Under the pieces are notes generated by a model. It did not search any database and had not been told where the DNA came from. It saw only the letters and a list, made by a program, of their open reading frames with translations. A stretch of DNA of 64,000 bases from a virus. The stretch is taken from positions 31,662 to 95,661 of the IMG/VR virus record IMGVR_UViG_3300045988_122545; one strand, written 5' to 3'. The position numbers and the translations under genes were made by a program. This document shows positions 1,533 to 40,525 of this stretch, piece after piece; position 1 is the stretch's first letter, and the number at the start of each line of letters is the position of its first letter.

Positions 1533-4396
1533 TTCTATATTAATTTTTCAAGTTCTACAATTCGATTCTATAGTTCTGCTATTTTTGCACATATTGCTTC
1601 ATTGTAATTAAGCATTTTGTGCTATCCATTATCAGATACCATTTCAGGATATATCTATTCCACTTCTTGTGCAATAAAACCATAAGAATGTCTTCCTGTA
1701 TTTTTCCAATCAAATTCTACTAACCTTAATTCTCCTTTTGGTTTTAAATCAATTATATTATCTTTTAAATTAATATCAGATGAATTTTGTACCCCATCTC
1801 TAGTTACTACAAACGCATTGCTTCTTGAAGTATGACTTGTTCCATTACCAACAACAAACAAATTATTAGTATCCGATGAATAATCATTAAATGAACCTAC
1901 TACAAATTCCTAATCATTTTTAGCAACGTTACCTTGTCCATTAGACATGCTCTATAAACCTAAAGCAAGGTTGTTTTTACCAGTTACCATAGATTGTTTT
2001 GCAAAAGCAACATGTATTGAATCGTTCTACTAATTATAAGTAGATTCATATAATTGTAATAATGATTTGGAACTATTAGGATAATCTATACTTAAAATTA
2101 TTCCGCCGCCACCAAATGCTACTGTAGCATTACCGTAAGATGTACAATTATAGCCTACTGCAATAGATTGACTTTCGTGTATAGTATTATATAAACCAAC
2201 ACAAATTGAATTATTACTATAATTTTCATTTAGATTGTTATAGTCACCAACGGTTATAGAATTTTTACCAGAAACATTATTGAATTCACCAATAATTAAA
2301 TAATTAACTGTTCCAGATTGATGGTTATTAGTAATTTTATTATGACCACGAGAAGTAATAATTAATCCTTCGGACGCATTATCTATACTATTTGTAGTAT
2401 AAATACCAATAGTAATATTATTACCCGATATTAACTTATCAGAAACTGTAATACTATATGTCTTAATATGATTAGCGGTTGTTACTCCATCATTGCTCAC
2501 TGATAAAGCATTCATTCTTCCTTTATACCAATCACTACCGTAACCTATTTGAAATAAAGCATCTTCTTCATATAAATTATATTTTCCAAATACTGTTTGC
2601 CCATCACCAGCAATTAGATTTTCTCCGTGAACAAACGAATTATTACCTGTAGCCTAACATCCATTACCACCTGTATGAGAATTCACACCATAAGCACAGT
2701 TATTTGTACCTTCGTGATGAGATGCAATACCAATAGCTGCTCCAAGTTTTGTTACAGGTTCTATTGTTATTTCTGTTGGAGTGATATGACTATCAGATAT
2801 TTCTATATTATCTGCAATATTTGGAGAAGTAGAAAAAAGTCTATCAACATGATCTACCTTTGTTACTTTGTATATAACGTCGTTACATTTAAATAACTCT
2901 CCTGCTGATAATACAAATTGAGATTCCGTAGAATCAAATATATATTGAACACAATAACTATTATAACTACATATTTTTAACTTGCGAGTTCTTAAAAAAA
3001 ATGGAGCTTCTACTTTTAAATCAACTTTACCTTCTGCGTGTGAACATTCACCTATTGCTTGGGTCAAATAACCTTCTACGTGTGATCTAGCCCCACTTGC
3101 TACCGTACTATCACCTTCTGCGTGAGATTTATTACCTGATGCAGAAGTATGATAATTTTCAGCATGTGAATAGATTCCTGTAGCATAATTGTTATCATAA
3201 TTATTAAATATTTCTCCTGTTCCGTTAGAATTTGGGTCTACTTCACCAACATTACTACTACCAGATATGGTTAAATCTCCTTCACCTAAAATCGACTAAC
3301 CATTTATGGTCTTAATATTAGTACCACTTACAAGTGTATTTTGTTTATTATCTAAAGCAATTTGTACCACATTAGATATTGGTTTATTGATATCTGATGT
3401 ATTATCAACATTTTCTAAACCTATCTAAGCTTTAGTTACATTATGTGGATTTAAAGTATTTCCAATATGAGAATCAGTTTTATTTTCCAAAGCTTTACCT
3501 CTAGCACCATCAAAGGCAGTACCTGTTACTTCTCCAATAACTGTAGGAGCTCCTACAACAGTAAATTGTGTACCAGTCCATCTAAATTGATACGCACTAT
3601 CACTACCAGTAATATCAACATAAATCTTTCCAGATTCTCCAGTTATCGCATTTTGATGTTCCGCATCAGAATATAATTTGATATTAGATAAAGTACCATC
3701 TTCTTCTTTAGAATACGTAGCATAACAATCTATTACATCATCTACATACGATGGTAATTGATTAGAAGGTATTAATCCTTGTTCATTCAGCGTGGCTATA
3801 CCGTTTGCAGTACCCATTTCTGAACGTTTTACTTGAGCGTCATTTGTTACATTAGAAAGACCTACTTGTTGTTTTGTAACATTATGAGGATTGTTTTTAT
3901 TATTTATATGCGATGTTAAATTACTTTCTATTTCAGTTATATTCTAACTTATCTTATTTTTTAAATCAGATAGAATAGATTGTAATGTATCAGTATCCTC
4001 ATAACCAGTTAAGAAATTTAAAATTTCATTATATTTGTCAATAAATTCTGAAGCACTTTCACCAAGTAATGTCTCTAGACTAGCATTAATATTTTCTATC
4101 TATTCGTTTATTGTATTTAAACTAGAATTTGTTTCATTCTTGTATTCTTCAAAATCTTCTTTATGTTGTAATAAATCATTTTCACATTCTTGTATTTCTA
4201 TAAGTAGTTCATCTAACTTATGCTTAAAACTAATGATTTCGTCATAAGTACGCTAATCGATTCTTTCCCATTCAACGCCATTATAGCATTTTATTACACA
4301 ACCGTATCTGTCTTCACTTAAATCAATCCAATATTCTATTTCTTCTGGTTTTGGAGCGATTGTTGAAGCTAAAAATCTAATTCTACCTATTACCAT
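1529..4396 (-). CDS. Long tail fibre with C-terminal peptidase-S74-type intramolecular chaperone domain (955 codons, 14 in-frame TAG)
   Basis: ORF fragments 1655..1861, 2030..2515, 2654..3067 and 3425..3817 share one frame and are separated only by TAG. ATG 4394-4396 lies 4 nt after the upstream TAA. Stop is TGA 1529-1531. In-frame TAG codons start at 4253, 4100, 3944, 3425, 3296, 2654, 2030, 2027, 1952, 1910, 1655, 1622, 1568 and 1535. Motifs: NPHNVTK.QVGL.NV fibre repeats, GNGTS...RSNAF, GFIAQEVE..YPE...LNYN (S74 chaperone). Confidence 0.8.
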
Positions 4397-11370: not shown

Positions 11371-12453
11371 TTAGTTATTAATAATTTCTTTTACCCAGTA
11401 ACCAGTAGGCATTTCTCCGCCTAAGTATTTTTTAATGGTTCTGAAGTCAGATCTTAAATATTTTTCTAAAGCCCTAATACCTTCTATTCTGATAGGAGTA
11501 TCAGAAAGTGTAGTATTGTGAACTTCAAATATTCTGATTCTTTTTGTTGCAATAATATCTCTTAATTCTTTATAGTCTATTACTTTTCTATCTTCTTCTT
11601 TACCGTACTTCCAATTAAATCTTCTACGGATTGCCGGAACTTTATTTATATACTCTGGGTCATTAATATATTTTCGTATAGTACAACCAGAAATACCTGA
11701 TGCTTTGGATGCGTCTGAAATACTACCATATTTTGCAATTAAATTACCTTTTAAATCATATTGTTCTACGGGAGTAGATAAACCATTCATGTCACCATTT
11801 TCGACTATTCTTAAAGCTCGTTTGCGTTTGAATTCTTCAGATTGTTTGGGAACATAATTTAAATTCATGTAATAGTCTTTTATATTTATTTGTAATTTGA
11901 TATCTTCTCTGTTATCTGGAGATAATATCCAAACATAAGGATTCTTTTTAGATGGTTTCATCGCTTGTTTACGAAGTATTCTGTAAATAGACGTTTTAGA
12001 TATGCCAGTATCTTCGGATGCTGCTTCTATACTAGGATATTCTTTAACAAATATACCATTTACGTCATATTGAAGTATAGGCTTTCTGTTTTCTGAAATT
12101 TTTCCTCTATGAAGAATACCTATTTTTTCTTTAGTTTCATCTGATTGAAATCTAACTCCTCCGCCTAGCTTGTTGTTATATCCTATTTCAGGATTGGTTG
12201 CACCAAGTAAAACTATCCAATAATTCTCACGCTCGTTCATATGAGCTAAATCTTTGCATAGTTCAATAGTTTCTATTTTAAAATTATTTTCGCCATACTC
12301 TCGTATTGCATTGCAGATAGCCGTTGTGCCACCACCATTTGCTTTAATTACGTGTCTTCTAAATCTGTATGACGCGCCTTCAGTAGTGGCACCAACGTAT
12401 ATCTTGTTATTAACCAAATTAGTCAATTTATAAATTTCGTAGATCTTTTCCAT
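11371..12453 (-). CDS. Free-standing GIY-YIG homing endonuclease with repeated HTH (NUMOD/IENR-like) DNA-binding modules
   Basis: IYKLTN..KIYVG...YRF..H...NYW motifs. Two repeats, S(I/E)xAS..TGIS..(S/T)I.R. 360 aa without any TAG. Confidence 0.8.
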   Translation of the reverse strand: MEKIYEIYKLTNLVNNKIYVGATTEGASYRFRRHVIKANGGGTTAICNAIREYGENNFKIETIELCKDLAHMNERENYWIVLLGATNPEIGYNNKLGGGVRFQSDETKEKIGILHRGKISENRKPILQYDVNGIFVKEYPSIEAASEDTGISKTSIYRILRKQAMKPSKKNPYVWILSPDNREDIKLQINIKDYYMNLNYVPKQSEEFKRKRALRIVENGDMNGLSTPVEQYDLKGNLIAKYGSISDASKASGISGCTIRKYINDPEYINKVPAIRRRFNWKYGKEEDRKVIDYKELRDIIATKRIRIFEVHNTTLSDTPIRIEGIRALEKYLRSDFRTIKKYLGGEMPTGYWVKEIINN

Positions 12454-12524: not shown

Positions 12525-13991
12525 TTACTCGCTTAGCATGATAAGTTCTCCGCAAGCTCTAGGATCTCTAAGCATTATACCCATTTCACCTAAGAAATGA
12601 ACAGAATAGCCATCCTTAGCATTACTACGAACTTCAGTATTAGAATGAGCGTAACCTGCAGGAGTTACAGAACCAGCCGTACACCAGTTAACGAATTCAC
12701 GGTCTTTACGAACAACCTTAACAATGTTAGCTTCACCATCACGACGACCAAGGTCAAGGAATGTCATACGATATGATTCCAACGGTTTCAAAGTAATCGG
12801 ATGCAACTGACGGTTGTAAGTAGTATTGTCATACAACGGGAAATACTTCAAAGTAAGTTCAATACCGTTAGACATCTTATAAGTCTTGAACTGACCACCA
12901 AATGTCAAATTGTCACCAGAACCAGTTACGAATACAGTATCGATAAGATTCATGTTAGCCATCTTTTCTTTCAATACTCTATCGAACTCACGCATACCCA
13001 TTTCACCAGTCAATGCAACAAACTTACGTTCGTTAGTACCAAGTACATTGTATGACAAGTCTGACAAGAAATCTTCGAGCAATTCAGCAGTCAAACGAGT
13101 ATAGAAACGTCTGTTAGACGGAGCAATCTGTTCGAGCAAACCAGCACCGATAAATACCGGACGACCGTTAGCACCTTTCAGATTACAAGAACCATCACGG
13201 TTAACATTACTTACATTATAAACTAAAGCACGTTCAATACGCTTATACCATTCACGCATAGCAACCCATTCCTGGAATGTAGACCACAAATAAGAAGTCT
13301 TACCTGATTTAGGATCTTTCAAAGCAACTGCCATTACAGTAGAATAAGCTGAACCAGTAATATCATAAGAAAGACGTACTGTCGTAAGATAGTTACGCAT
13401 CTTGAAATGAGTATTATAGTTCAGGATATCAGCCTGTTCACTATATTCTTCGTATGCAGAAGCAAGACGAGATACCTGACAACCTGGTTTTAAAACAGAC
13501 GGATCAATATAAGATGCAGGATTACCATTAGAAACAAATACAGTATAAACATACAAGCTACCATCCTGATACGGAGCATCTGATACACGTACCTGGCTCT
13601 TGTCATCAAGTTCCAAAGTAGCACCCGGACCAAACCAGTTATCTTCCAACCACAACTGAATCGGAGTGTTGTTCAAACCAGCAGTAGTAGTATCTGAAAT
13701 GGTTGCGCCATTCCATTTTGCATCACGGATTGTAACTGCACGATCCTGATCAATCATTACACCCCATTCGAAAGAAGGCTGATCGATAACCATTACGTTA
13801 CCAAGACCACCAGTAAGCATATCCAAAGATGTTGTGTAACCATTATCTTTTGTACCAAATACGTATGATAAAATAGTTGATACTTCATACGGTCTCTACT
13901 GTGAAGCGATTGAAATTTTATTAGTATCAATCAAATCACTAAACCATTTTCCTTTATAGAGGACTAAATTATTTAGAATATTGTTATCCAT
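12525..13991 (-). CDS. Major capsid protein (HK97-fold type, 488 codons, 1 in-frame TAG)
   Basis: ORF 12525..13826 begins at an internal TTG. The frame continues through TAG 13896..13898 to ATG 13989-13991. Size, strong codon bias and position (scaffold-like gene upstream) fit a crAss-type MCP. Ends on TAA. Confidence 0.7.
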
Positions 13992-19727: not shown

Positions 19728-22700
19728 TTAATTAGTAAATGTATATACATTATCATCGTCAAACTTTACTGGACTTTCGTCATCAAACCAATTTTGCGCA
19801 AATATTGGTCCATCAAAAAGTAAACGACTCTTATTTTCTTTTTCTTTTTCTTTTACTACTACATTAAATAATTGTTCACGATAAATCATTACCTACATCA
19901 GAGCCATGACTCTATCGGTATTTATTATATCGTTGTATGCAATTAATTCCTCTAGTAATGGTTCAGATAATATGTTGTATAAGTTCTTTTTGCCATCAGC
20001 ATTTATATCATTCAACCAGTCTTTTATTAATCCTTCACCCCAAGCTTTAATTGATTTATTCATATGGCAACCTTTCTTTCTCTGTACTTTAGAATTACCA
20101 ACAATATCATTGATTATATCTGGTTGATCTGCTAGTAAATAATCACAATGTTTGTTAGCAAAGTAAACGAATAAGCCTTTATTCTGATTTTCATACATTG
20201 CTCTGGCATTATAGTATATCAACAACTTACGAACATTTTCGTAGAAATCATCTGCTGCTTGAGGTCTACCAGTATATTCTGCAACAATTATATCTGAATA
20301 AGATTCTATATTCTATATTCTTTTATATATGATACACGAACCTAATGAATTTGTTCCTGACTAATCATGGTCATATGGGTCAATTCCTGCAATATATAAA
20401 CCAAATGGTGCATCTTTCATAGGATGTTCCCATATAACTATAGAACCAGTAGGATCATCATCTTTATTTAGAGGATAATGTGTAATATCTCCTGTCTTTT
20501 TAATTACCCAACTAATATTTCCATCAGGTGTTTGTACTAAATCACCTATTTGTTTATGATTCTATAGCTGTTTATTTGTACGTATTCTAGCCAACTATTC
20601 CTATAGCTCTTTCTTAGGAAATATGTTTCCTCCAAATTCCAAACAAGCTTCTGCTGGAGTAATACATCTTTCACAAACATACCTATCTACTGCTACTGAA
20701 TTAGTAGCATTTTGTATCATTTCTTTACGTTGCTCCAATATAAAATCTAGAGAAGGTTTACGTAATGTATTACCATCATTATCCATATAAATACGATTAC
20801 ATTTATCATCTCTAATATCCATATTAGCGTACTATGGTATAAAGAATCCACACGTACTAGTTACTGCATTTTCATCCCATATATTCTATAATTCTACACA
20901 GTTATATCCTTTTGGTTTATAGAACATATCTTTCAATGTAGCAAAGTTTGATTCTTCATCTCCACCAGTATTATGTGTTACAATACCATTTACAATATAA
21001 TTATGCTGTTCTTTAGCAGTAATGTTATATATATCTTGTATACCGATATCTGTTATATTTGTGATTTTATCTGCAACTATTCCACAAAGATATTTATTAT
21101 ATTTTGGTAACTCGGACTGAATAAATAAATAAATTAAATCCAGTGCTGCTGATTTTCTAGAAACTGTTAATTTTATATGTTGAGAAAATCTACCTAGACT
21201 TACCACATCAGCAATTTCTAATCGATATTCGCCGTTTTTATCAGAAATAAAATGATCCTTGTATTTCCTAATTCTATTAGTAGGTTTAATATAACGAATA
21301 ATCCCATGTATACCAAAATGCAACAACGCTTCTTGTACCTAAAGTAATATGTCTTTCTAACACTACGTTAATACTATTCTGGCTCGTTTTTTACTAAAGT
21401 GTATGTACCCATCAGTATCGTATAATCCGCCAATTAATTCACTTATTGTATATTCATCATAACTATTGAAATCTATAGGCAGACGTTTATTACCTTTAGT
21501 TTGTCCATATATACCTAATTTTCTTAGCTATTTGCATATTCCTTTTATACGGATTTCTTGATAATTCTTATTATCTTTAGTAGTATATTGTTTTTCAATA
21601 ACTGTATCGAAATGAGAATGAACATAATCTAATATTTCCTATTCGCAATTACTTAGTATGGGCGTTTTATTATTTCCATAGCTTCCGTCGCCTATTAACC
21701 ATCCTATAAATCTAGGTTCCCACATTACGTTTTTGCCAAATATAGGGATCTAATCTATCAAACCTACTTGGTCTCCTATTTTACATTTTTGTGCTTCGTG
21801 CCATAACCAAGACTTCATACGTTCGTTTTCAAATCTTTTTCCAGAAACACGTTTTGTCCTACCAGGAGTAGACCATAATAAAGGATGGTCTTTACTACAT
21901 CTTATTGTTCTACCCGATTGTAATTCTATTTGAACACATTCTTTCTATGATATCGGATTAATGTTTTCTATGTTTTGTATAGACGCCTGATAGGTATCCC
22001 ATCCAATTATACCATCTTCTTGTTTTAAATTCTCTATATTAATACAATTACCGTCTGATGTCCATACTCTAGATCCTTTGCACACACATCCAAATGCTAT
22101 CATGGTACCAAATGCTACACCATCAACTTCAACAGACGGTCTAGCAATTTGCCATGCTGCACCTAATTCTTTAAATGAACCAGCTTCTTCGAATAAGATT
22201 AGTTTTGCTTTCTTACCACGGACTATATCAGGATTATCCTTAAGAGTAACACCAATTATTTCTGATTTATAACCTAATTCTACTTCATTACCAAATTCAT
22301 CTTTAGTAAAGAATCCAGCTCTTTTACGCATTGCTGTATTAACAGATCTTTTCTTACCCCATGCAGTATTCTTATCGATAAAGTCCATGTAATCCCACGC
22401 TTTAGTAAGAATACCATCATCTGTTAAGTATTGTTTATTTGAAGCATATACATAGGATTTAGAATTAGGAATAAGGTAGTAATTACGACATAACATAGAA
22501 CCACCTTTATAACTATTATGAGTGGGTATAAAATCTTTTGTTATATATAAATGATTTTCGTTATCGATGCATAAGCATCGTTGTTTTTCAAATTTGCCAG
22601 TTCTACGAATTGCTTTTATTCCGATACCATTATAATTATACTTTCTATCTTTACGAATTTTCTCCAATTTTCTAGGAAGTTTAAAGATATCTTCTTGTGT

Positions 22701-23948
22701 AGTAATACACAATTCCCAATGAGGTAAAGTATTAGATTTGCAACCGTTATTAAATTCTACTCCAAATCTACCTTCTATTTCTTTAGATTTGTGACATCTT
22801 ATACCGAGACTTCTTAATACAAATTGTAAATCATCAATTAATTGTTCTGAAGTTGATACGAACGTAGAAGCGCCATTTGTAATGCTACCGTCAGTATCCA
22901 TTAAACCTCGTACCAATTCAAATCGATTTTCAACAGAAGTGTATTTGTAATTTTCAGGAATAAATTTTTTATTTGCTTTTACTTTTATTCCTAATTTTTT
23001 TAATTCTCTATTTAAATTATTATGTTTTTTATCTTTTGATATTATTACGTAAGCATATTTATCGGATTCTATTTTTTTAATAATATAATCTGGTAATCTA
23101 CGTGATAACTCTTCTACGATAAATTGATCGGCTGTAGAAAATCTAACTTGTGATCCACATATGTATCCATCTCCTAGTAATACACCTAATACATAAGGAT
23201 CAATGTGTATTGGTTTTTCATCAAATCGTAAAGGATTTATAGCAGGTACTTTATAAGGATAATGCTCTTTTCCTTTTGAACCTTGTGTTAATTTGCGTTT
23301 AGCATATTCTTTAGTAGGCATTATATAAAATTTCTTACCGTTTCTGCACGTAGCCCATAAATGATTAGCTCCGCATCTAACAACACGACCATCTTGAAAT
23401 TCAACTTCGTATACTTCTTGAATACCTTGTTCTACAATATCTCCAATTTTAACAGGACTACCGTTAGGATTCATTACCATATCACCAACTTTTAAAGATC
23501 CCATTTGAACAAAACCGTTCGGCGTTAATACTTCTTCAGAATAAGGTTGTTCATATCCTTTACGTCTACTTTTAAGTACGCATAAATGCTTACCTGATTC
23601 CTCAGCATCCTAGATGGTTTGAAAATAAAAATAGTCGTAATCCCAGAAATCAGGGAATGCGACTTCCTAGACAGTCACGATTTTATCTTTACCATGTCTG
23701 TCTTTTATCTTCTTATTTACAGATCTATTAATAGGACAAAAGTTTAAATAGAAATAATTATAACCACTAATCCAATCTCCATCTTCTGCTGTATATCCTT
23801 CCAAACATCTACGTTTCTATTCATCCCAGTAAGAGAAATATTCTGAAGTATTAGATGCATAATTACAGTATTTACCTGTCTATTCAAACGTAATAGCTGG
23901 TTCTCTGAATTTATTACTATTTGCTATTTTTTTATTAAAGTCTACCAT
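19728..23948 (-). CDS. terL: Terminase large subunit interrupted by two inteins (1406 codons; about 690 extein codons; 19 in-frame TAG)
   Basis: ATG 23946-23948 to TAA 19728-19730. One frame links ORFs 21945..23504, 20886..21326, 20601..20822 and 19893..20225 with only TAG between them. Extein motifs: VLKSRRKG (P-loop region), LILFEEAGSF (Walker-B-like), and MIAFG/TGGDEE restored on removing intein 2. Confidence 0.8.
20970..22088 (-). mobile_element. terL intein 2 (373 codons), class-1 with LAGLIDADG endonuclease; contains 7 in-frame TAG
   Basis: Starts at Cys (CVCKGSRVWTSDG) right after MIAFG and ends ...GIVTHN followed by T(GGDEE). LAGLIDADG motifs FIGWLIGDGSY and LIGGLYDTDGYI. TAG at 21945, 21750, 21639, 21528, 21363, 21357 and 21339. 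Confidence 0.75.
22515..23552 (-). mobile_element. terL intein 1 (about 346 codons) with LAGLIDADG endonuclease; class-3-like; no TAG
   Basis: Ends ...DFIPTHN followed by S(YKGGSM). N-terminal block EQPYSEEVLTPNG aligns with the canonical C.SYETEILT..G block but lacks Cys1, so the boundary is uncertain by a few codons. LAGLIDADG motifs VLGVLLGDGYI and LVRGLMDTDGSI. Confidence 0.65.
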
Positions 23949-24145: not shown

Positions 24146-24215
24146 TAATAGAATATGTTGATTAATTTTTATTTTTTATGACAAAAACTTTTTTCAAAAA
24201 ATTTTATATTTTTTG

Positions 24216-24303
24216 TCGCGGTGGTAGGAGTCAAACCCACCCGGTCGGCTTCAGAAGCCACACTGTTTTAGAGACAGTCCATGCAATCGTACATCACACC
24301 GCG
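24216..24303 (-). tRNA. Amber suppressor tRNA, anticodon CUA, 88 nt with long (about 21 nt) variable arm
   Basis: Acceptor CGCGGTG/CACCGCG. Anticodon arm ACTGT-CTCTAAA-ACAGT (U33, CTA at 34-36 = plus-strand 24269..24271, A37). Variable arm GGCTT-CTG-AAGCC. T arm GTGGG-TTTGACT-CCTAC. Discriminator A. No encoded CCA. Confidence 0.8.
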
Positions 24304-26400: not shown

Positions 26401-28302
26401 TTATTTTATTTTATCTTTAATTTTATCATATAATTTATCAGCTAAGTAAGCAGCATCAGGATGTACTCCAGTGGCACCATATTTAGGACTACGTAACTTA
26501 AAGAATCCTTTCCAATCTGATTCAAATCCTGTCATTACTAATTCCGTTTTTAAAGCATTTGGTAATACTTGTCTAGCTTGTTGAGGCTTCCAACTTTCAC
26601 TAAGTAATGTAAAATACATAGATTCAGCAAATTCTAAAGATTGTTTGAAATAGTAGAAACACTCATTATCATCGGCTACTATTTCTCCAAACTTATTTAC
26701 TTCTGCCCAACTTGGTATAATAAATGTAATTTCATTATTAAACTTACTCTTACTATAATTACAGTATCTAGTAGATTCCATAGCAAAACTAAATACACGA
26801 TGTCTTACAAATTCATGTGATACACCTCTATCGCAAGTCCATTTAACGGTAATACGTTTTTCATGATATTCAGTTGGTTCACAGATATATTGTAAATCAT
26901 CTAACCAATTGTTTTCAACAAGTACACGTAGATTGGTTGTTACATAGTTATGAAACATTCCGTTTTCTTCAATCACTGCTAGTCTCGAATACTTATTCAT
27001 AGCATAGTCTTCTACAGCACAAAAATCTCTAGCGGAATTTGGTAAATCCAAGTAAACAGTACCATGTTCAAGCATAGCTCCATGACCAGATTTAATCATT
27101 CTATCAACAAATGCCTTAGCACTATCTTCAGTAATCTTATCTTCGGATTTATAACAATTACCAATCCAGCATGTCTTGCCGTTAAACCGTATACATATTA
27201 TACCATTATTTGTTTGTGTGCAATAAACGGTTGTAACAAGATGTGTTGTGCGAATATGTTTTCTAGAATCTATTATCCAAGAATCTCGCATATGTTCTTG
27301 TATATAACATTTTTGTGATATTTCTGGATCATAACTTATTGTCGCATTTCTTCCTTTTAAGATGAATAGTTCCTGTATTTCGTTTAGTAAACGTATACTT
27401 ACAGATAAATATCTATTAATTCTAGTTTTATTATGAGATCCATCACCTAAATATAGTATACGCAGAAAATGATCGATTTGTCTAACAGATAAATTTCGAA
27501 ACCATTCTGGTAAATGTTTGTTCTGTGAATATCTTCCACACATTTCTTCGAACCATTCTACATAACATTGATTTCCAAACTTTATCCATTTTATATTTGG
27601 TTTCCGTCTATCGAAATCAATATAATAATGTATATGTTCGTTTTTCAATGCGTTTATTACTAATTCGTATAACTCATTATTTTCATCTTGAGTTATACAT
27701 ATATAACTACCGGAATTATATTTTTCTCCATGAAATGTATGTCCTTCAGTTATATAAGCCGCAAGTATAGTTAATATATCGTCGTTTACATTAAAACTTT
27801 CTGTGGTATTATATTCTCTATTTCCACCATTCATTTTCTTAGTATACACGATATGTTCTTCAAAATCATTAATTTTGTATACTGCTCCATTAAAATATTT
27901 AGGTATTCTAAATCTATTTCTTTTTCCTGGATTATGTCCATATACTAATTGTTTAGCGTTTAGAAAAGTATATTGTCTTGCATTAACTGGAGATTGATAA
28001 ATACGATGATCTTCTGTTACAAGAAAATTTATATTTGCGTGAGTACATTCTACTCCGTCATTATCATAAGGTTTACTAAATATATTTGGTGCTTCATATT
28101 CCAATATATTTTTATCAGGATTATAAGTTAATACTCTATCTTTATTATTATCTATTTCATCAATATATATAAAACCTCTATCAGTTAATACTTCAGTATC
28201 TTCTGTAAAGCATGTTCGACCAGCTAATTCTATTTGTTTATACATACCTTCTAATCCAGGTTGCTGTTCAATTATTTCTACGTTTGGTTTTATCAATTTC
28301 AT
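26401..28302 (-). CDS. thyX: FAD-dependent thymidylate synthase ThyX (or a ThyX-family pyrimidine-modifying enzyme) interrupted by an intein
   Basis: Exteins give ...IELAGRT/CYKSEDK...GHGAMLEH...HEFVRHRVFSFAMESTRY (the ThyX RHR..S....S.RY motif). Confidence 0.8.
   Translation of the reverse strand: MKLIKPNVEIIEQQPGLEGMYKQIELAGRTCFTEDTEVLTDRGFIYIDEIDNNKDRVLTYNPDKNILEYEAPNIFSKPYDNDGVECTHANINFLVTEDHRIYQSPVNARQYTFLNAKQLVYGHNPGKRNRFRIPKYFNGAVYKINDFEEHIVYTKKMNGGNREYNTTESFNVNDDILTILAAYITEGHTFHGEKYNSGSYICITQDENNELYELVINALKNEHIHYYIDFDRRKPNIKWIKFGNQCYVEWFEEMCGRYSQNKHLPEWFRNLSVRQIDHFLRILYLGDGSHNKTRINRYLSVSIRLLNEIQELFILKGRNATISYDPEISQKCYIQEHMRDSWIIDSRKHIRTTHLVTTVYCTQTNNGIICIRFNGKTCWIGNCYKSEDKITEDSAKAFVDRMIKSGHGAMLEHGTVYLDLPNSARDFCAVEDYAMNKYSRLAVIEENGMFHNYVTTNLRVLVENNWLDDLQYICEPTEYHEKRITVKWTCDRGVSHEFVRHRVFSFAMESTRYCNYSKSKFNNEITFIIPSWAEVNKFGEIVADDNECFYYFKQSLEFAESMYFTLLSESWKPQQARQVLPNALKTELVMTGFESDWKGFFKLRSPKYGATGVHPDAAYLADKLYDKIKDKIK
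27157..28212 (-). mobile_element. thyX intein (352 codons) with LAGLIDADG-type endonuclease
   Basis: Starts CFTEDTEVLTDRGF after AGRT and ends ...TCWIGN followed by C(YKS). Motifs LAAYITEGH and ILYLGDGSH. Penultimate residue is Gly, not His. No TAG. Confidence 0.75.
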
Positions 28303-33682: not shown

Positions 33683-34370
33683 ATTGGTTGCTCAATTAAA
33701 AAACTAATAATTTTCCAAGTTGTTGAGGACACCAGTTTCTTATATTTTTAATTCCCCTTAAATTCTGTTTATAAATATAATCATAACCATAACAGCCATG
33801 AATACAGATAATAAGGTCGCAATAGCGTAATTAGAAATTAAAACTCAATATAAGTTTTAGGTGTAAAACATGTGTTTAAAAAATAACCACAACCTAAAGA
33901 TGATCACTTTACTGGTGAAAAGCTTGAGAATATATGGATTACATTTGGATGCCAAATATATTCAACATAGTATAATAAGCCTAATCAGCTTTGCGGTTAT
34001 TATTACTTTTTATTTTTCTATTTTATAAATCTTTACTTAAAGTAAACGTACAGTCGCACGTTAGTGGATTACAGTTCGTATTCTTATCAAGAATATTGTA
34101 TTACCGAAAACTGGGGTTATGTGATAAATGCGTAGGTTCCGTACACATAGAAAAGCAACTAATCGAAAGTAAGCATAGAGAATTTATACAATAGTAACAT
34201 TATTTAAATTAATAATGATTACTACCACATGAGTTTGTGGTGCTTAACAGTATAACACTAACTGAACAATAAGTGTTAAAACTTTTAAACAAAAATCAAG
34301 AGAAGCATTAATAGCATAACCAAGAATATATTATACTAAAGTATAGACATATAAATGCGCTTGATTTTAT

Positions 34371-34456
34371 GCTCGAATGGCGAAATAGGTAGACGCGTCA
34401 GACTTAAAATCTGATGAGCAGTAATGTTCGTGCGGGTTCAACTCCCGCTTCGAGTA
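34371..34456 (+). tRNA. tRNA-Leu (anticodon UAA), type II
   Basis: Acceptor GCTCGAA/TTCGAGT. D arm GCG-AAATAGGTAGA-CGC. Anticodon arm TCAGA-CTTAAAA-TCTGA. Long variable arm. T arm GCGGG-TTCAACT-CCCGC. Discriminator A. Confidence 0.85.
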
Positions 34457-34551
34457 CAATTCTAAATCCATACTTATAGCAAATAACACCATCTGTGAAG
34501 ACCGTGTTATTCATTCAAAAATATCTACACTGTGTGAATCAGTGTCAACTT

Positions 34552-34681
34552 TGTGGGGCTTATATCTAAAGAGCGCACTTAAATAGAGCTATTATCAATA
34601 GAAGGAGCGTTAGTTGCAAATAACAAACCGGAAATTCTTTTTAGTTAAGTTTAAGCTTTAGTATTAGTGCAGAGTAATATC
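34552..34681 (+). ncRNA. Candidate structured RNA module, copy 1 (TGTGGGG ... TAGTGCAGAGTAATATC)
   Basis: Shares 5' and 3' boxes with copies at 34826 and 36693. The closing stem 34562-71/34656-64 covaries with copy 2. Confidence 0.4.
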
Positions 34682-34825
34682 AAAGACAGAGTATATACCT
34701 GTAGTTATACTCAAGTAAACTACTAACTACAGAACTGGTCATCCTGGTACAGGGAAGGCAGACCAGAGAGAGGTTTCGGAAGTAGTACCTCTCTCGCTCT
34801 TTATGGTGAGAATCCATAACAAGCA

Positions 34826-34917
34826 TGTGGGGCTTATGTCTAATCAGATCAGAGGGCATTATTAATGTCGTTTAATGGTAGGTGGAGGAGATTAGCATTA
34901 GTGCAGACGTTAAAATC
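34826..34917 (+). ncRNA. Candidate structured RNA module, copy 2
   Basis: TGTGGGGCTT... stem 34836-45/34890-98 ...TAGTGCAGACGTTAAAATC. Confidence 0.4.
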
Positions 34918-35118
34918 ATGCAAAAAGATAGTGTTATGTTCAGTCTTATTCTACAATCTTTTAGTAAATCGGTACTATCTTTTTATTTTACCCAAGCGTG
35001 GGTCGTCCTTATTCATTGACCCTTGAATAGATGAAAATTCTGAACATCTGTAAAGTATAATGGCTTGTGAAAGTCGTTATACTTTTTTAATTAGAATAAT
35101 CAAAGCGTTGATTAGACG

Positions 35119-35179
35119 CTCTTATACTATATAAATGATTTTTCGTATGAATCTATTCTGATTTATACAAAATTAACCT
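35119..35179 (+). repeat. Conserved ~60-nt non-coding element, copy 1 (partner at 46037..46094)
   Basis: CTCT.AT....TATA.A.ATGATTTT..GTAT.AATCTAT..TG...A.A...TTAACCT is shared between two ORF-free tracts 11 kb apart. Confidence 0.5.
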
Positions 35180-35312
35180 CTTGCGTTGTGAAACGCCTTT
35201 CCACTTGACAAATAAATATAAGTATATAGTCTTGGTAGGTCCATGTAAATAGCACTTAACTGATGCAGTCTATATTACTTATTTAACTGATTATTCATTA
35301 AAAACAATATAT

Positions 35313-35450
35313 ATGGAAATATTTATGCAAGCAGTTGCCGCATTATTATTAATTATTGTAGTATTATTTGTCTTTGCAATGGTAGCAATATCAATAAAAA
35401 ACAATAAAAATAATAATAATGACGATAATGATTTTATGATGCAATGTTAA
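35313..35450 (+). CDS. Small membrane protein (45 aa)
   Basis: ATG..TAA. One hydrophobic helix (AVAALLLIIVVLFVFAMVAI), then an N/D-rich tail. Confidence 0.4.
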   Translation: MEIFMQAVAALLLIIVVLFVFAMVAISIKNNKNNNNDDNDFMMQC

Positions 35451-35646
35451 TTAGATTTATAACCTAGCCACAGACAGTTACAAGCCTGTAAATCGTTTTT
35501 GAATAGGGAGTAATAAATCTACGTAGAAACTCAAGGATAAGAGTATAAAAATATCCAAATTTTTAACAATAGTTTAAATCCTCACACAAGATTACAGCAT
35601 CAAAAGATGTAGCGTATGAGTGTGAGGATTTCAAAAAACATTTAAT

Positions 35647-35820
35647 ATGCTAAATATTATATTATTAATAAATTTAATATTATTGATATTTTCTTTAATA
35701 TTAAATATGATTACATCGTTTTACAATCATTACAAATTATCAATAATATCGGAATTATTAATAATGTTTAATATATTTATCGAAATAATTTCCGTTATAA
35801 TAATATTTATAATTCTGTAA
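35647..35820 (+). CDS. Small membrane protein (57 aa)
   Basis: ATG..TAA. Two hydrophobic stretches. Extremely AT-rich, so it may be spurious. Confidence 0.3.
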   Translation: MLNIILLINLILLIFSLILNMITSFYNHYKLSIISELLIMFNIFIEIISVIIIFIIL

Positions 35821-35873
35821 AAGCGATATAAACAAAAAATAAATTTAGTGTTTAACCATTAAAAAACAAAAAA

Positions 35874-36170
35874 GTGAAAATTTTTAAACTTATCACAAGC
35901 TACATTATTGGATTTGTAATCAGTGTATGGATTATTATCCTTTGGTTACTTTTAGTAAATCCATACTGTGATACTACAAATTTAGTTACTTCTGTCTTAC
36001 CAAAAAATGTAAAAGTTTTCTTAGAAACAGATACTGGATTTACAGTATTACAATTGCTATTTTTAGCAATGTTGTTTGTCATACTTATCCTATTTTATTT
36101 ACAAGGATATAAAGAAGGAAAAGAAAAGTATGATGTAACAAAAAATATTAACGAAAGTAATAACAATTAA
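35874..36170 (+). CDS. Membrane protein (98 aa, 2 TM)
   Basis: GTG start. Two clear hydrophobic helices. Confidence 0.5.
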   Translation: MKIFKLITSYIIGFVISVWIIILWLLLVNPYCDTTNLVTSVLPKNVKVFLETDTGFTVLQLLFLAMLFVILILFYLQGYKEGKEKYDVTKNINESNNN

Positions 36171-36186
36171 AAAACTTATCAAAAGT

Positions 36187-36612
36187 ATGAAACATTACAA
36201 TTTAACCATTTGTTTATTGATAATTTTACTCATGTGTGTAACAATGTGTTGTAATAGACACAATCCGCATGCACAACAGATTACTACCGAACAGGTAGAT
36301 TCAGTTGACACAATCAAAATGACTCCTATGGAGTCCGTAAACATGATGCTTGACATTCGTAAAGAGATGATCGAAAGTCATCATGTAGATTCAGTATACA
36401 TGACTATGCCGGAAGATATCATAACTCTAATTGTCTTTGACAATCCTGATTGTGATATTTCCTGGGTAGTAAAACATTATGAGGAAAACATTGATTATTA
36501 TACGGACGTGTTGAAACAAAAACAAAAGATAGAAAATTATAAAAAACAACAATCTGAACCTGACACACTTCCAAATAAACCACATCCTGACATTAGTATA
36601 CGAGAATTATAA
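36187..36612 (+). CDS. Secreted or lipoprotein-like protein (141 aa)
   Basis: N-terminal signal-like LTICLLIILLMCVTMCC. Confidence 0.55.
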   Translation: MKHYNLTICLLIILLMCVTMCCNRHNPHAQQITTEQVDSVDTIKMTPMESVNMMLDIRKEMIESHHVDSVYMTMPEDIITLIVFDNPDCDISWVVKHYEENIDYYTDVLKQKQKIENYKKQQSEPDTLPNKPHPDISIREL

Positions 36613-36628
36613 TCATATTTTAGTCATT

Positions 36629-36658
36629 ATTACACCGATTCGTGAGAGTCGGTGTAAT
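36629..36658 (+). terminator. 10-bp hairpin after 36187..36612 (terminator-like, no U-run)
   Basis: ATTACACCGA-TTCGTGAGAG-TCGGTGTAAT. Confidence 0.4.
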
Positions 36659-36692
36659 ATAAAATAAAAACGTCATCAGAAAATGACAAACA

Positions 36693-36796
36693 TGTGGGGT
36701 GTAAGTAATATTTTACATTTTATAAAGAAAAAGTGGATTGTAAAGCTTTATAAAATGCGTATCCATAAATATTATGATCATGCGGACGTTAAAATC
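36693..36796 (+). ncRNA. Candidate structured RNA module, copy 3
   Basis: TGTGGGGTGT... stem 36706-12/36768-74 ...ATGCGGACGTTAAAATC. Confidence 0.4.
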
Positions 36797-37003
36797 ATGT
36801 ACTCCAATAAGATTGGTTTGACAGCCTTTCTGCTTATGAGTTAAAACTATAGTGAGAGTCATAAAACCTAATCTAAAAAAGCAATAAAAATAAAGGTGTA
36901 GAAGTCTAACTAAAACAGTATGGTGTAACAAATAAACAAATCCCTGCCATACCAGGGTCGTCGTCAACCAATTTATTAACCAAAACTTTAAAATTATGTA
37001 AGA

Positions 37004-37252
37004 ATGAAACGATTACTTAGGTCAATTTGCTTTTGGATTTTAGATAAAACCAAGAGTAAAAAGAAGAATTCACCAATATCTCAGATATTGGCTGAACAAG
37101 AATGTGTAGCAAATGGACATATTTGGAAATCAAAACTTCATAGAAATGAAGGTCCATATGAAGTAAAAACAAAAGATCGTGTATATTGTGTACGTTGTGG
37201 ACAAAAATACCATGAACACGTATACGATAACTCAGTAAAAATAACCGATTAA
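37004..37252 (+). CDS. Small zinc-ribbon-like protein (82 aa)
   Basis: C..NGH ... CVRCG..YH pattern. Confidence 0.5.
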   Translation: MKRLLRSICFWILDKTKSKKKNSPISQILAEQECVANGHIWKSKLHRNEGPYEVKTKDRVYCVRCGQKYHEHVYDNSVKITD

Positions 37253-37275
37253 TAAACAATAAAATCATTATCAAA

Positions 37276-37677
37276 ATGGAAAAAATTATTATCTTCTCAG
37301 TACCATCTGATGCAGTAGATAACTGTACACTTGTCTCAAAACTCGATGAATTAATGAGTGAATTAGGTATTCATTCACACGTAATCATTTTAAATAAAGA
37401 AGATTTAGCATGTAATGCTAGACAAATTCATCCGACAATAGTAATATTAAAAGATATTATTAAAACCTGTGGAACAGGTAAAAATCGTATCAATTTCAAC
37501 GTAAATTTCTATCAAGCTCTTGCAAATGGATTTTATACATCTACTAAAGATGTAAAAATTATTCTCAATGAGATCATTAAAGGTAAAAATATTCCAGAAA
37601 TTATGGAATTTGCAAAAGCAAATGATATTTCATTTATTTTTAAACTCGCCGAAGAAGCACTTGGAATGATGCGATAA
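37276..37677 (+). CDS. Hypothetical protein (133 aa)
   Basis: Intact ATG..TAA ORF. Confidence 0.55.
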   Translation: MEKIIIFSVPSDAVDNCTLVSKLDELMSELGIHSHVIILNKEDLACNARQIHPTIVILKDIIKTCGTGKNRINFNVNFYQALANGFYTSTKDVKIILNEIIKGKNIPEIMEFAKANDISFIFKLAEEALGMMR

Positions 37678-39789: not shown

Positions 39790-39844
39790 ACTGTTAGGTC
39801 ATTATACAGTTGTTAAGACGAGGGTTCGACTCCCTCTAGCTCCA
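39790..39844 (+). other. Orphan tRNA 3' module (anticodon-like arm + T arm + 3' acceptor strand) with no matching 5' acceptor strand
   Basis: ACTGT-(11-nt loop)-ACAGT, then GAGGG-TTCGACT-CCCTC-TAGCTCC-A. No GGAGCTA-type partner within about 800 nt upstream. Preceded by a 10-bp hairpin at 39753..39780. Confidence 0.35.
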
Positions 39845-40033: not shown

Positions 40034-40159
40034 GGGATATTAGTTTAACGGTAGAACAAAGCGTTTCGAAAGAATCGATGATTATGAATAACATTAAATT
40101 CAGCAAGAACGAAGTTATTATAATCCGCTTGAGCATGGGTTCGATTCCCATATATTCCA
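40034..40159 (+). tRNA. tRNA-Arg(UCG)-like gene carrying a ~55-nt insertion in the anticodon arm
   Basis: Acceptor GGGATAT/ATATTCC. D arm GTTT-AACGGTA-GAAC. Anticodon stem AAGCG (40059-63) pairs with CGCTT (40126-30). TTTCGAA follows the 5' strand. 40071..40125 is extra and folds as a 12-13-bp helix. T arm ATGGG-TTCGATT-CCCAT. Confidence 0.5.
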
Positions 40160-40457: not shown

Positions 40458-40525
40458 AGTAGAATCGACTAATGGATAAGTCGTCTCCAAAGGAGAAAAT
40501 GCGGGTTCGAATCCCGCTACTACTC
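40458..40525 (+). ncRNA. tRNA-like gene (68 nt) with a 13-nt anticodon arm
   Basis: Acceptor AGTAGAA/TACTACT (1 mismatch). D arm GACT-AATGGATA-AGTC with GG. T arm GCGGG-TTCGAAT-CCCGC. The anticodon region is TCTCC-AAA-GGAGA only. Confidence 0.4.

Follow-up and report, generated by a model that had tools for sequence, protein, structure and literature searches.

Three plus-strand modules in the window, the 64-kb stretch of DNA analysed here, are members of the hatchet ribozyme family (RF02678). The best explanation of the whole, which we hold with high confidence, is that they are self-cleaving ribozymes of a crAss-like (Crassvirales) phage that would cut the transcript of a non-coding RNA island. 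A Crassvirus major capsid protein (E = 1e-186) is encoded in the window, which is a Crassvirales genome. A search of the entire window, on both strands, with the Rfam covariance models of 4227 families returned a full-length RF02678 match (model positions 1–133) above the gathering score of 51 bits for each of the three modules, and no RF02678 match elsewhere in the window. Folding places a P0 hairpin 5′ of each copy.

34482..34511, plus strand: P0 hairpin of hatchet 1, 8-bp stem AAUAACAC/GUGUUAUU
34523..34685, plus strand: hatchet ribozyme copy 1, positional type A (RF02678, 69.2 bits, E = 4.1e-12)
34766..34795, plus strand: P0 hairpin of hatchet 2, 9-bp stem GAGAGAGGU/ACCUCUCUC
34797..34921, plus strand: hatchet ribozyme copy 2, type B (RF02678, 93.6 bits, E = 1.9e-18)
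36628..36659, plus strand: P0 hairpin of hatchet 3, 14-bp stem
36672..36800, plus strand: hatchet ribozyme copy 3, type C (RF02678, 91.0 bits, E = 9e-18)

These E-values, calculated over the whole window, place all three matches far beyond chance, and both the family identity and the conservation of the modules are direct observations. In the covariance-model alignment, helices P1 to P4 are formed in every copy. The 13 highly conserved hatchet nucleotides are C20–A22, U28–G31, G63–G66, and A73–A75 (numbering of PMC6561176); every copy keeps CAA, UGGG, and GC(A/G)G, and copies 2 and 3 also have an unbroken AAA. P1 is 6, 6, and 3 bp long in copies 1, 2, and 3, respectively. In the published set, 59% of hatchets have a P1 of 6 bp and 40% one of 3 bp, with almost no other length, and about 90% have a P0 on the 5′ side (PMC4604424). 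The region containing the P0 of hatchet 1 (34467–34526) folds at -9.3 kcal/mol (z = -3.2) and that containing the P0 of hatchet 3 (36616–36675) at -22.3 kcal/mol (z = -6.4), while the P0 stem of hatchet 2 (fold 34741–34800) ends 5 nt 5′ of the predicted cut. Minimum-free-energy folding of the copies themselves gives z = +0.16 and -1.6, values that are not diagnostic of the hatchet fold; the test that counts here is the covariance model. MAFFT misaligns the P4 loops, and the curated Rfam model is sufficient to settle the family.

An initial annotation had described the modules as a three-copy RNA in which conserved 5′ and 3′ boxes flank a variable core closed by a covarying stem. Its box coordinates are exact: the 5′ boxes start at 34552 and 34826 (TGTGGGGC) and at 36693 (TGTGGGGT), and the 3′ boxes, read from the sequence, end at 34681, 34917, and 36796. 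The boxes were thus placed correctly, but the true elements are longer (34523–34685, 34797–34921, and 36672–36800); left out were P1, the cleavage site, the first three P2 bases, and the last four bases, so that some 29 nt upstream (P1 and the cleavage site) and the long-range P2 helix were overlooked. The stem is also as described, with 9 bp and one bulged U in copy 1 (AUA-U-CUAAAG / CUUUAGUAU) and copy 2 (AUG-U-CUAAUC / GAUUAGCAU), which differ by three double substitutions (A-U to G-C, A-U to U-A, and G-C to C-G), and with GUAAUAUUU / AAAUAUUAU at the equivalent site of copy 3. This “closing stem” is the base of P4, and the variable 50–90 nt are the dispensable P4 loop. Rather than flanking a core, the boxes are the catalytic core itself (J2/3–P3 and the L2 loop), the 5′ box corresponding to the P2 end, the UGG junction, and P3, and the 3′ box to the catalytic L2 loop. 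The 3′ box of copy 1, GCAGAGUAAUAUCA, falls 2 nt short of the consensus GCAGACGUUAAAAUCA. The central expectation of a functional structured RNA with covarying helices is borne out by the RF02678 matches and the compensatory changes. This shows that a reader with access to the sequence only can find a genuine ribozyme core, and covariation that is real, in one genome.

Copies 2 and 3 have cores near-identical to those of Ht-1 and Ht-2, two constructs validated biochemically, with no essential difference. Copy 2 (P1 UUAUGG/CCAUAA, 6 bp, loop UGAGAAU; P2 GCAUG/CAUGC) contains the full set of 13 conserved core nucleotides and shares 56 of 64 core positions with the validated Ht-1 (Ht-1 primers in PMC4604424). 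Seven of the eight differences fall in P1, P2, and P4-base pairs that are still standard; the eighth is U76/C76. Copy 3 (P1 UCA/UGA, 3 bp, loop GAAAA; P2 ACAUG/CAUGU) is identical at 51 of 57 core positions to an Ht-2-derived SHAPE construct (PMC6101554) and has all 13 conserved nucleotides except A65, which is G in its L2 loop, GCGGACGUUAAAAU; the active A65 variants reported, in vitro, are A65C and A65U only (PMC6561176). Across both comparisons nearly all differences are compensated pairs. More generally, the hatchets described here share with the published Ht-1, Ht-2, and env10 the P0–P4 architecture, a P1 of 3 or 6 bp, a cut predicted at the 5′ base of P1, and an origin in human-gut metagenomes; copies 2 and 3 also share the conserved nucleotides, apart from A65 in copy 3.

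In the published construct GUGC(dC)|UCAGAAAAUGACAA (PMC6101554) and in Ht-1 (PMC4604424), the cut lies directly 5′ of the first P1 nucleotide. Since the sites here are taken from these construct sequences, the predicted cuts are 34526|34527 in copy 1, 34800|34801 in copy 2, and 36675|36676 in copy 3. A cut right behind the invariant C of model position 3 was rejected, as the construct sequences place it one position further on. The cleavage chemistry is likewise drawn from published work on near-identical sequences. Each RNA would fold into P1–P4, with the CAA linker, the UGGG junction, and the GCAG...AAA loop forming the active site, and the 2′-OH of the nucleotide just 5′ of P1 would attack its own phosphate. 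The upstream RNA would be left with a 2′,3′-cyclic phosphate just past the P0 hairpin, and the downstream RNA with a 5′-OH and the entire ribozyme as its 5′ leader. The P0 of hatchet 1 would in this way come to lie at the 3′ terminus of the upstream product.

Hatchets of all three positional types recur in the same non-coding RNA island of related Suoliviridae genomes. The references cr4_1, cr53_1, and cr115_1 and 11 IMG/VR loci harbor one to three hatchets each, mostly two or three; the matches in the three reference genomes overlap 0 annotated features and are thus unannotated in GenBank. Of 76 unique hatchets collected from the window and 57 related loci, 75 form every one of the three variable P2 pairs, and six paired sequence combinations occur among them; P1 is 6 bp long in 51 of the 76 and 3 bp long in 20. 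Hatchet 3 lies between orthologous genes in cr115_1. The proteins encoded on either side have only 26% and 40% identity to their cr115_1 orthologues, in contrast to the ribozyme core and the module 3′ of it, which retain about 93% DNA identity; the P4 loop has diverged. This pattern suggests that the hatchet 3 core and its 3′ module are under purifying selection. A megablast search of 33800–37300 against phage records returned only matches of about 95–165 nt, which correspond to the hatchets and the 3′ module.

36801..36861, plus strand: invariant 61-nt module directly 3′ of hatchet 3

The 61-nt module is 93% identical to three Suoliviridae genomes of other genera and is found in at least 119 viral contigs, nearly always directly after a hatchet 3′ end. 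It has no match in Rfam. A proposed hairpin pairs ACUC with GAGU, AUA with UAU, and AGA with UCU around the loop UUUGACAG, in which UGAC could form a pseudoknot with GUCA at 36858–36861. This fold model leaves 96.5% of cells paired and shows compensatory changes at two pairs. A 15-codon ORF starting from an ATG in P2 was considered and rejected, as its frame is shifted by indels and cr4_1 lacks the ATG. A role of the TTGACA in the module as a promoter was judged unlikely, given that the compensatory changes fit an RNA helix and that the block occurs once in the window.

The fusion of this module directly to hatchet 3′ ends in more than 100 contigs, its conservation beyond that of hatchet P4, and a hairpin/pseudoknot with some compensatory support could indicate that hatchets are conditional devices rather than constitutive cutters. 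Hatchet 3 and its 3′ module would then form a regulated leader in which, for example, the module or a bound factor switches cleavage or translation of the downstream genes. We consider this unlikely: covariation is confined to two pairs, copies 1 and 2 lack the module, a riboswitch match in Rfam is absent, and the analysis identified neither a ligand or protein nor an alternative pairing that involves the ribozyme core.

Some copies, above all copy 1, might instead be decayed relics that resemble the family and do not cleave. Copy 1 (P1 ACACUG/CAGUGU, 6 bp; P2 CUUUG/CAAAG) has the lowest score of the three and departs from the consensus three times, with an L2 3′ strand shortened by 2 nt, AAUA in place of the conserved AAA, and A at position +1; because of these departures it may be slow or inactive. 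It also differs from published hatchets in lacking the ACGU palindrome in its short L2 3′ strand and in having A-U rather than U-A as the first P1 pair. Decay is nonetheless quite improbable, as 14 unique sequences from different genera, including orthologues in cr4_1 and cr53_1, occupy the same genomic position and share the CUUUG/CAAAG P2, the +1 A, and the shortened L2. In addition, CAA, UGGG, and GCAG are intact in copy 1, and the missing ACGU palindrome can be replaced in L2 without loss of activity (PMC6561176). Judged by this conservation, copy 1 is a member of a conserved short-L2 subtype and a putative ribozyme, a form for which we found no published activity test in the literature.

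The proposal in the initial annotation that the modules fit no known family and represent an undescribed one now has almost no probability left, contradicted as it is by the full-length RF02678 matches of all three copies above the curated threshold and by their near-identity to published hatchet constructs; the Rfam search that it had suggested settles their identity as hatchet ribozymes. Equally negligible is a reading of the boxes as a DNA-level promoter and terminator of ordinary mRNAs, which could draw on the TTGACA 3′ of hatchet 3 and on the P0-like hairpin 5′ of every copy: the boxes coincide with the hatchet catalytic core, P1, P2, and P4 vary by compensatory substitutions that only RNA pairing explains, and a scan for sigma-70-type sites found no enrichment (57 sites vs 43.8 ± 7.2 expected), so that the initial preference for an RNA over such a pair was well placed. 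The modules are thus a rediscovery of a ribozyme class that dates from 2015 (Weinberg et al.) and for which a crystal structure exists, rather than a new RNA family. Hatchets have already been recorded as largely restricted to Crassvirales (bioRxiv 10.64898/2026.03.07.710320).

Around the hatchets of the window lie further elements of the non-coding RNA island:

34094..34278, plus strand: divergent RAGATH-7-like RNA at the head of the island (RF03159, sub-threshold)
34371..34457, plus strand: tRNA-Leu(UAA) (ARAGORN; RF00005, 61 bits)
35133..35289, plus strand: RAGATH-6-like match between hatchets 2 and 3 (RF02686)
35456..35516, plus strand: candidate minimal type-P1 twister without P3, between two small ORFs (RF03160)

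RAGATH stands for RNAs Associated with Genes Associated with Twister and Hammerhead, the neighbourhood behind the discovery of hatchets. RAGATH-6, -7, -7-assoc, -9, and -14 surround the hatchets of related loci, as in twister and hammerhead neighbourhoods. In most of the reference genomes and IMG/VR loci, the hatchets form one same-strand series with RAGATH-14, -6, and -7, tRNA-Leu, and RAGATH-9, and a permuted tmRNA is often part of the series in related loci. The window differs in that its RAGATH-7 and RAGATH-6 are divergent and sub-threshold and its twister is minimal and sub-threshold. The RAGATH-7-like RNA scores 59.7 bits against a gathering score of 111.8 (E = 1.7e-10), with full-score RAGATH-7 at the same relative position in related loci; the RAGATH-6-like match, at 35.2 bits against a gathering score of 170, is only a hint. 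Small ORFs in and around the island have no informative matches in PHROGs or Pfam.

The twister candidate scores 28.9 bits, below the gathering score of 67.2 (E = 3.7e-4 in a 551-nt search), with P3 absent and a 9-nt insertion. It keeps the core UAA..GC..GU.ACAAGCC..AA..GAG, and its predicted cut is U35460|A35461. The T1 pseudoknot, a pairing of the P4 loop with the 3′ internal loop by the scheme of env22 (PMC6101554), covaries in three sequence lineages (UAC/GUA, GGC/GCC, and GAC/GUC vs the consensus CCC/GGG). At locus L053, a twister-like element (3058–3128) lies exactly between RAGATH-7 (2836–3057) and RAGATH-6 (3129–3279), and a hammerhead-like element adjoins RAGATH-14.

The tRNA-Leu(UAA) lies 69 nt upstream of the hatchet 1 cut site. 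A precedent for self-cleaving RNAs near phage tRNAs exists in the HDV-like theta ribozymes of gut phages (PMC10879173), which have been proposed to act in the processing of transcripts that contain tRNAs. Like hatchets, theta ribozymes are small, self-cleaving, and wholly downstream of their cut, and both are found in gut Caudoviricetes that use suppressor tRNAs. Theta ribozymes, however, have a nested double pseudoknot, a fold unlike that of hatchets, and no HDV-family model matches the window at E ≤ 1. They are also located directly at tRNA 3′ ends, whereas in the window tRNA-Leu, hatchet 1, and hatchet 2 follow one another in a different order than in the reference genomes, so that hatchet and tRNA are not coupled in a fixed way.

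The most likely role of the hatchets here is co-transcriptional cutting of a long transcript; we infer cleavage in vivo and this processing role, the latter from the genomic arrangement. Three hatchet cuts and the twister-like element would split one long rightward transcript of the island into pieces, of which the first would hold the RAGATH-7-like RNA and tRNA-Leu, the second hatchet 1, the third hatchet 2 with the RAGATH-6-like region and small ORFs, and the fourth hatchet 3 with its fused 61-nt module, ahead of the next small genes.

A broader extension of this processing model is put forward tentatively, as a possibility rather than an expectation. Suoliviridae-type hatchets could act as spacers that, together with sub-threshold minimal twisters and hammerheads, free RAGATH RNAs, tRNA-Leu, and short mRNAs. 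The hatchets at the three positions would be paralogues of ancient origin, each with an anatomy of its own: type A without the L2 palindrome, which drives dimerisation of hatchets in crystals, and type C fused to a 61-nt module outside Rfam. Module and retained ribozyme would together make up a composite 5′ leader, through which the downstream early genes would be controlled in their stability or translation. As a discovery the finding is modest, the hatchet class being already known. The fixed arrangement in three positions, the RAGATH RNAs with ribozymes at their flanks, and the hatchet 3 module nevertheless provide a concrete processing hypothesis, and the spacer and leader functions, if true, would be the first concrete biological role for the hatchet class.

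Searched with the Rfam 15 models at their curated cut-offs, the complete window gives three plus-strand hits to the hatchet ribozyme family RF02678 (gathering score 51 bits), each covering the full model; a permissive scan of the window found no additional hatchet copies. The three repeated modules are hatchet self-cleaving ribozymes, an already known kind of element. The initial annotation had described them correctly as repeated structures, and its interpretation of them is supported in part: they do have a functional RNA fold, but the family that it did not recognise is RF02678.

Hatchet ribozymes of the window and the folded hairpins upstream of them
34482-34511, plus strand: P0 hairpin upstream of hatchet 1
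34523-34685, plus strand: copy 1 (hatchet 1), RF02678, 69.2 bits, E = 4.1e-12
34766-34795, plus strand: P0 hairpin upstream of hatchet 2
34797-34921, plus strand: copy 2 (hatchet 2), RF02678, 93.6 bits, E = 1.9e-18
36628-36659, plus strand: P0 hairpin upstream of hatchet 3
36672-36800, plus strand: copy 3 (hatchet 3), RF02678, 91.0 bits, E = 9e-18

The conserved boxes lie exactly where they had been placed, with TGTGGGGC starting at 34552 and 34826, TGTGGGGT starting at 36693, and the 3′ box ending at 34681, 34917 and 36796. The proposed closing stem is likewise present, with nine pairs and a single bulged U in copy 1 (AUA-U-CUAAAG / CUUUAGUAU) and copy 2 (AUG-U-CUAAUC / GAUUAGCAU), three of which are doubly substituted between the two copies with pairing kept; copy 3 has an equivalent stem at the same place (GUAAUAUUU / AAAUAUUAU). 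The modules had, however, been drawn too short, by approximately 29 nt at the 5′ side that contain the P1 hairpin, the CAA linker, the first three P2 bases and the cleavage site. In the hatchet fold, the 5′ box runs from the last two nucleotides of the P2 5′ strand across the UGG junction into P3, and the 3′ box from the P3 3′ strand through the large L2 loop (GCAGACGUUAAAAU) into the P2 3′ strand. What had been called the “closing stem” corresponds to the L3/P4 base and the variable 50–90 nt to the P4 loop, which has been swapped for a tetraloop in a construct that is still active (PMC4604424).

Published hatchets have four helices, 13 highly conserved nucleotides, a P1 that is almost always 3 or 6 bp with the cut at its 5′ base, and in approximately 90% of cases an upstream P0 hairpin (PMC4604424, PMC6561176). 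P1 is 6, 6 and 3 bp long in copies 1, 2 and 3, respectively, and CAA, UGGG and GC(A/G)G are kept in all three. Copy 2 contains every conserved hatchet nucleotide and shares 56 of 64 core positions with Ht-1. Copy 3, identical to an Ht-2-derived SHAPE construct at 51 of 57 core positions, has G in place of A65, a position at which A65C and A65U hatchets cleave in vitro (PMC6561176). Outside base pairs, the differences from the constructs are A65G, the −1 base and one U/C in L2; the remainder fall in base pairs that are still standard, mostly with both strands changed.

The published constructs are cut directly 5′ of the first P1 nucleotide, for example GUGC(dC)|UCAGAAAAUGACAA (PMC6101554), and cleavage of copies 1, 2 and 3 is therefore predicted at 34526|34527, 34800|34801 and 36675|36676. 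At −1 the three copies have U, U and A, respectively, and C(-1)U and C(-1)A variants show wild-type-like cleavage (PMC6561176). Hatchet cleavage is a Mg2+-dependent internal transesterification, with G31 the likely general base, that leaves an upstream 2′,3′-cyclic phosphate and a downstream 5′-OH RNA retaining the whole ribozyme (PMC4604424, PMC6561176). This chemistry is established for RNAs nearly identical to copies 2 and 3 and would apply to the window hatchets by analogy.

Copy 1 departs from the consensus in L2, the 3′ strand of which (GCAGAGUAAUAUCA) is 2 nt below consensus length and lacks the ACGU palindrome; in addition, the conserved AAA is replaced by AAUA and the first P1 pair is A-U rather than U-A. 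Its orthologues carry GCAGAGAAAUCA in cr4_1 and GCAGAUGAAAUCA in cr53_1, two reference genomes of the Suoliviridae. In a census of 76 unique hatchets from the window and 57 related loci, P2 CUUUG/CAAAG, A at +1 and the short L2 are common to 14 unique sequences; such type A hatchets, with short L2 and this P2, include window 34523-34685 and, at related loci, L002 5000-5158 and L003 2414-2525. Replacing the palindrome with UUUU abolishes dimerisation and retains activity (PMC6561176). Because the form is shared by 14 sequences and the palindrome is replaceable without loss of activity, we treat copy 1 as a putative ribozyme of a conserved subtype rather than a relic or a private defect.

The window is a Crassvirales genome, with a Crassvirus major capsid protein (PF23898, E = 1e-186), a P22-like portal and ThyX on the minus strand, and a sigma factor, a DnaB-like helicase, a primase and nucleases on the plus strand; the hatchets are located near the beginning of this rightward module. 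The capsid ORF (12525-13826), taken from its first start codon, is matched by the capsid model only from position 54, and is closely followed downstream by a GIY-YIG/NUMOD1 homing-endonuclease ORF at 11371-12453 (minus strand). The 633-aa ORF at 26401-28302 (minus strand) has a ThyX domain only in approximately its last 150 residues and gives tblastn matches in two pieces; a LAGLIDADG ORF (21945-23504, minus strand) is found nearby. A tRNA with anticodon CUA at 24215-24303 (minus strand), labelled Pyl by ARAGORN, probably suppresses amber codons and suggests that TAG is reassigned in part of the phage genome.

DNA matches to known phages are all short, comprising the hatchets and the block after copy 3, and point to the Suoliviridae genomes cr115_1, cr4_1 and cr53_1. 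The hatchets are missing from the annotation of the three GenBank records, where no hatchet match overlaps any annotated feature. By Rfam, these genomes have two to three hatchets each and 11 IMG/VR loci have one to three, in three recurring positional types, A, B and C, represented by window copies 1, 2 and 3. Among the 76 unique hatchets, 51 have a P1 of 6 bp and 20 one of 3 bp, and in 75 every one of the three variable P2 pairs is formed, with six paired sequence combinations. Copy 3 lies between genes whose orthologues flank the cr115_1 copy, with protein identities of only 26% and 40%; the ribozyme core is nearly invariant among relatives and the P4 loop has diverged. A constant core amid diverged genes and P4 is the pattern expected under selection on a catalytic RNA.

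Hatchet 3 runs without a gap into an invariant 61-nt block (36801-36861), for which Rfam has no match. At least 119 viral contigs contain the block, which is approximately 93% identical between genera and in nearly all of these contigs starts right after a hatchet 3′ end. A model consisting of a hairpin with loop UUUGACAG and a possible pseudoknot (UGAC/GUCA) gives 96.5% pairing, and two of its pairs change on both sides, which is suggestive of this fold but not conclusive. Separately, hatchets 2 and 3 each have downstream of them a short G+C-rich hairpin with GTCGTC after it (34990-35010, CCCAAGCGTGGGTCGTCC, and 36943-36972, AAATCCCTGCCATACCAGGGTCGTCGTCAA, respectively); GGTCGTC has only these two occurrences on the window plus strand, and related loci show a similar hairpin-plus-GTC motif.

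The hatchets belong to a plus-strand island rich in non-coding RNAs.

Other RNA elements of the island
34094-34278, plus strand: RAGATH-7-like RNA, divergent, 59.7 bits, below the gathering score of 111.8
34371-34457, plus strand: tRNA-Leu, second element of the island
35133-35289, plus strand: RAGATH-6-like region, divergent, 35.2 bits, below the gathering score of 170
35456-35516, plus strand: candidate minimal type-P1 twister ribozyme without P3, 28.9 bits, below the gathering score of 67.2

The order in the window is RAGATH-7-like RNA, tRNA-Leu, hatchet 1, hatchet 2, RAGATH-6-like region, a 45-codon ORF, the twister-like element, three small ORFs and hatchet 3. Most related genomes and loci have a same-strand series of RAGATH-14, RAGATH-6, RAGATH-7 (with RAGATH-7-assoc), two hatchets, tRNA-Leu, small genes, a hatchet, small genes and RAGATH-9, with a permuted tmRNA in many. 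IMG/VR locus L027 (IMGVR_UViG_3300045988_097163, 98,829 bp) is nearly identical to the window over the island, sharing the three hatchets, tRNA-Leu, RAGATH-7-like RNA and twister-like element; the crAss-like genome of the window is probably approximately 99 kb. Also present are a terminator-like 15-bp hairpin and T run between hatchet 2 and the RAGATH-6-like region (35052-35085), a long perfect hairpin (35577-35633, AAATCCTCACAC...GTGTGAGGATTT) just before a 57-codon ORF, and, further downstream, a short match to a tmRNA 3′ end (39819-39836) and two tRNA matches missed by ARAGORN (40034-40159 and 40458-40525). The first of these tRNAs spans 126 nt, implying an insertion of approximately 55 nt, and may be intron-containing or otherwise unusual.

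The twister-like element retains the twister core. All three pairs of its T1 pseudoknot are kept through compensatory changes in three lineages (UAC/GUA, GGC/GCC and GAC/GUC versus consensus CCC/GGG), and homologues, all below the Rfam threshold, occur in L024, L027, L029, L036, L044, L049 and L053.

All 210 published hatchet representatives are metagenomic (PMC4604424), and a 2026 preprint reports the class to be largely confined to Crassvirales (10.64898/2026.03.07.710320); the window hatchets are a known class in the kind of sequence where hatchets were discovered. No description of the positional types or island arrangement was found in the literature searched, and these constitute context rather than a new kind of element. 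The tRNA-Leu precedes hatchets 1 and 2 in the window and follows them in the reference Suoliviridae genomes, so the hatchets have no fixed tRNA coupling of the kind seen in theta ribozymes (PMC10879173). In L053 (2836-3865, minus strand; RAGATH-14, hammerhead-like, RAGATH-6, twister-like, RAGATH-7), ribozyme-like elements are inserted directly between non-coding RNAs: the twister-like element (3058-3128) takes up precisely the space that separates RAGATH-7 (2836-3057) from RAGATH-6 (3129-3279), and RAGATH-14 has a hammerhead-like element (42.4 bits versus a gathering score of 48.5) next to it. This locus gives the best support for a processing role, in which the hatchets would cut a long island transcript co-transcriptionally.
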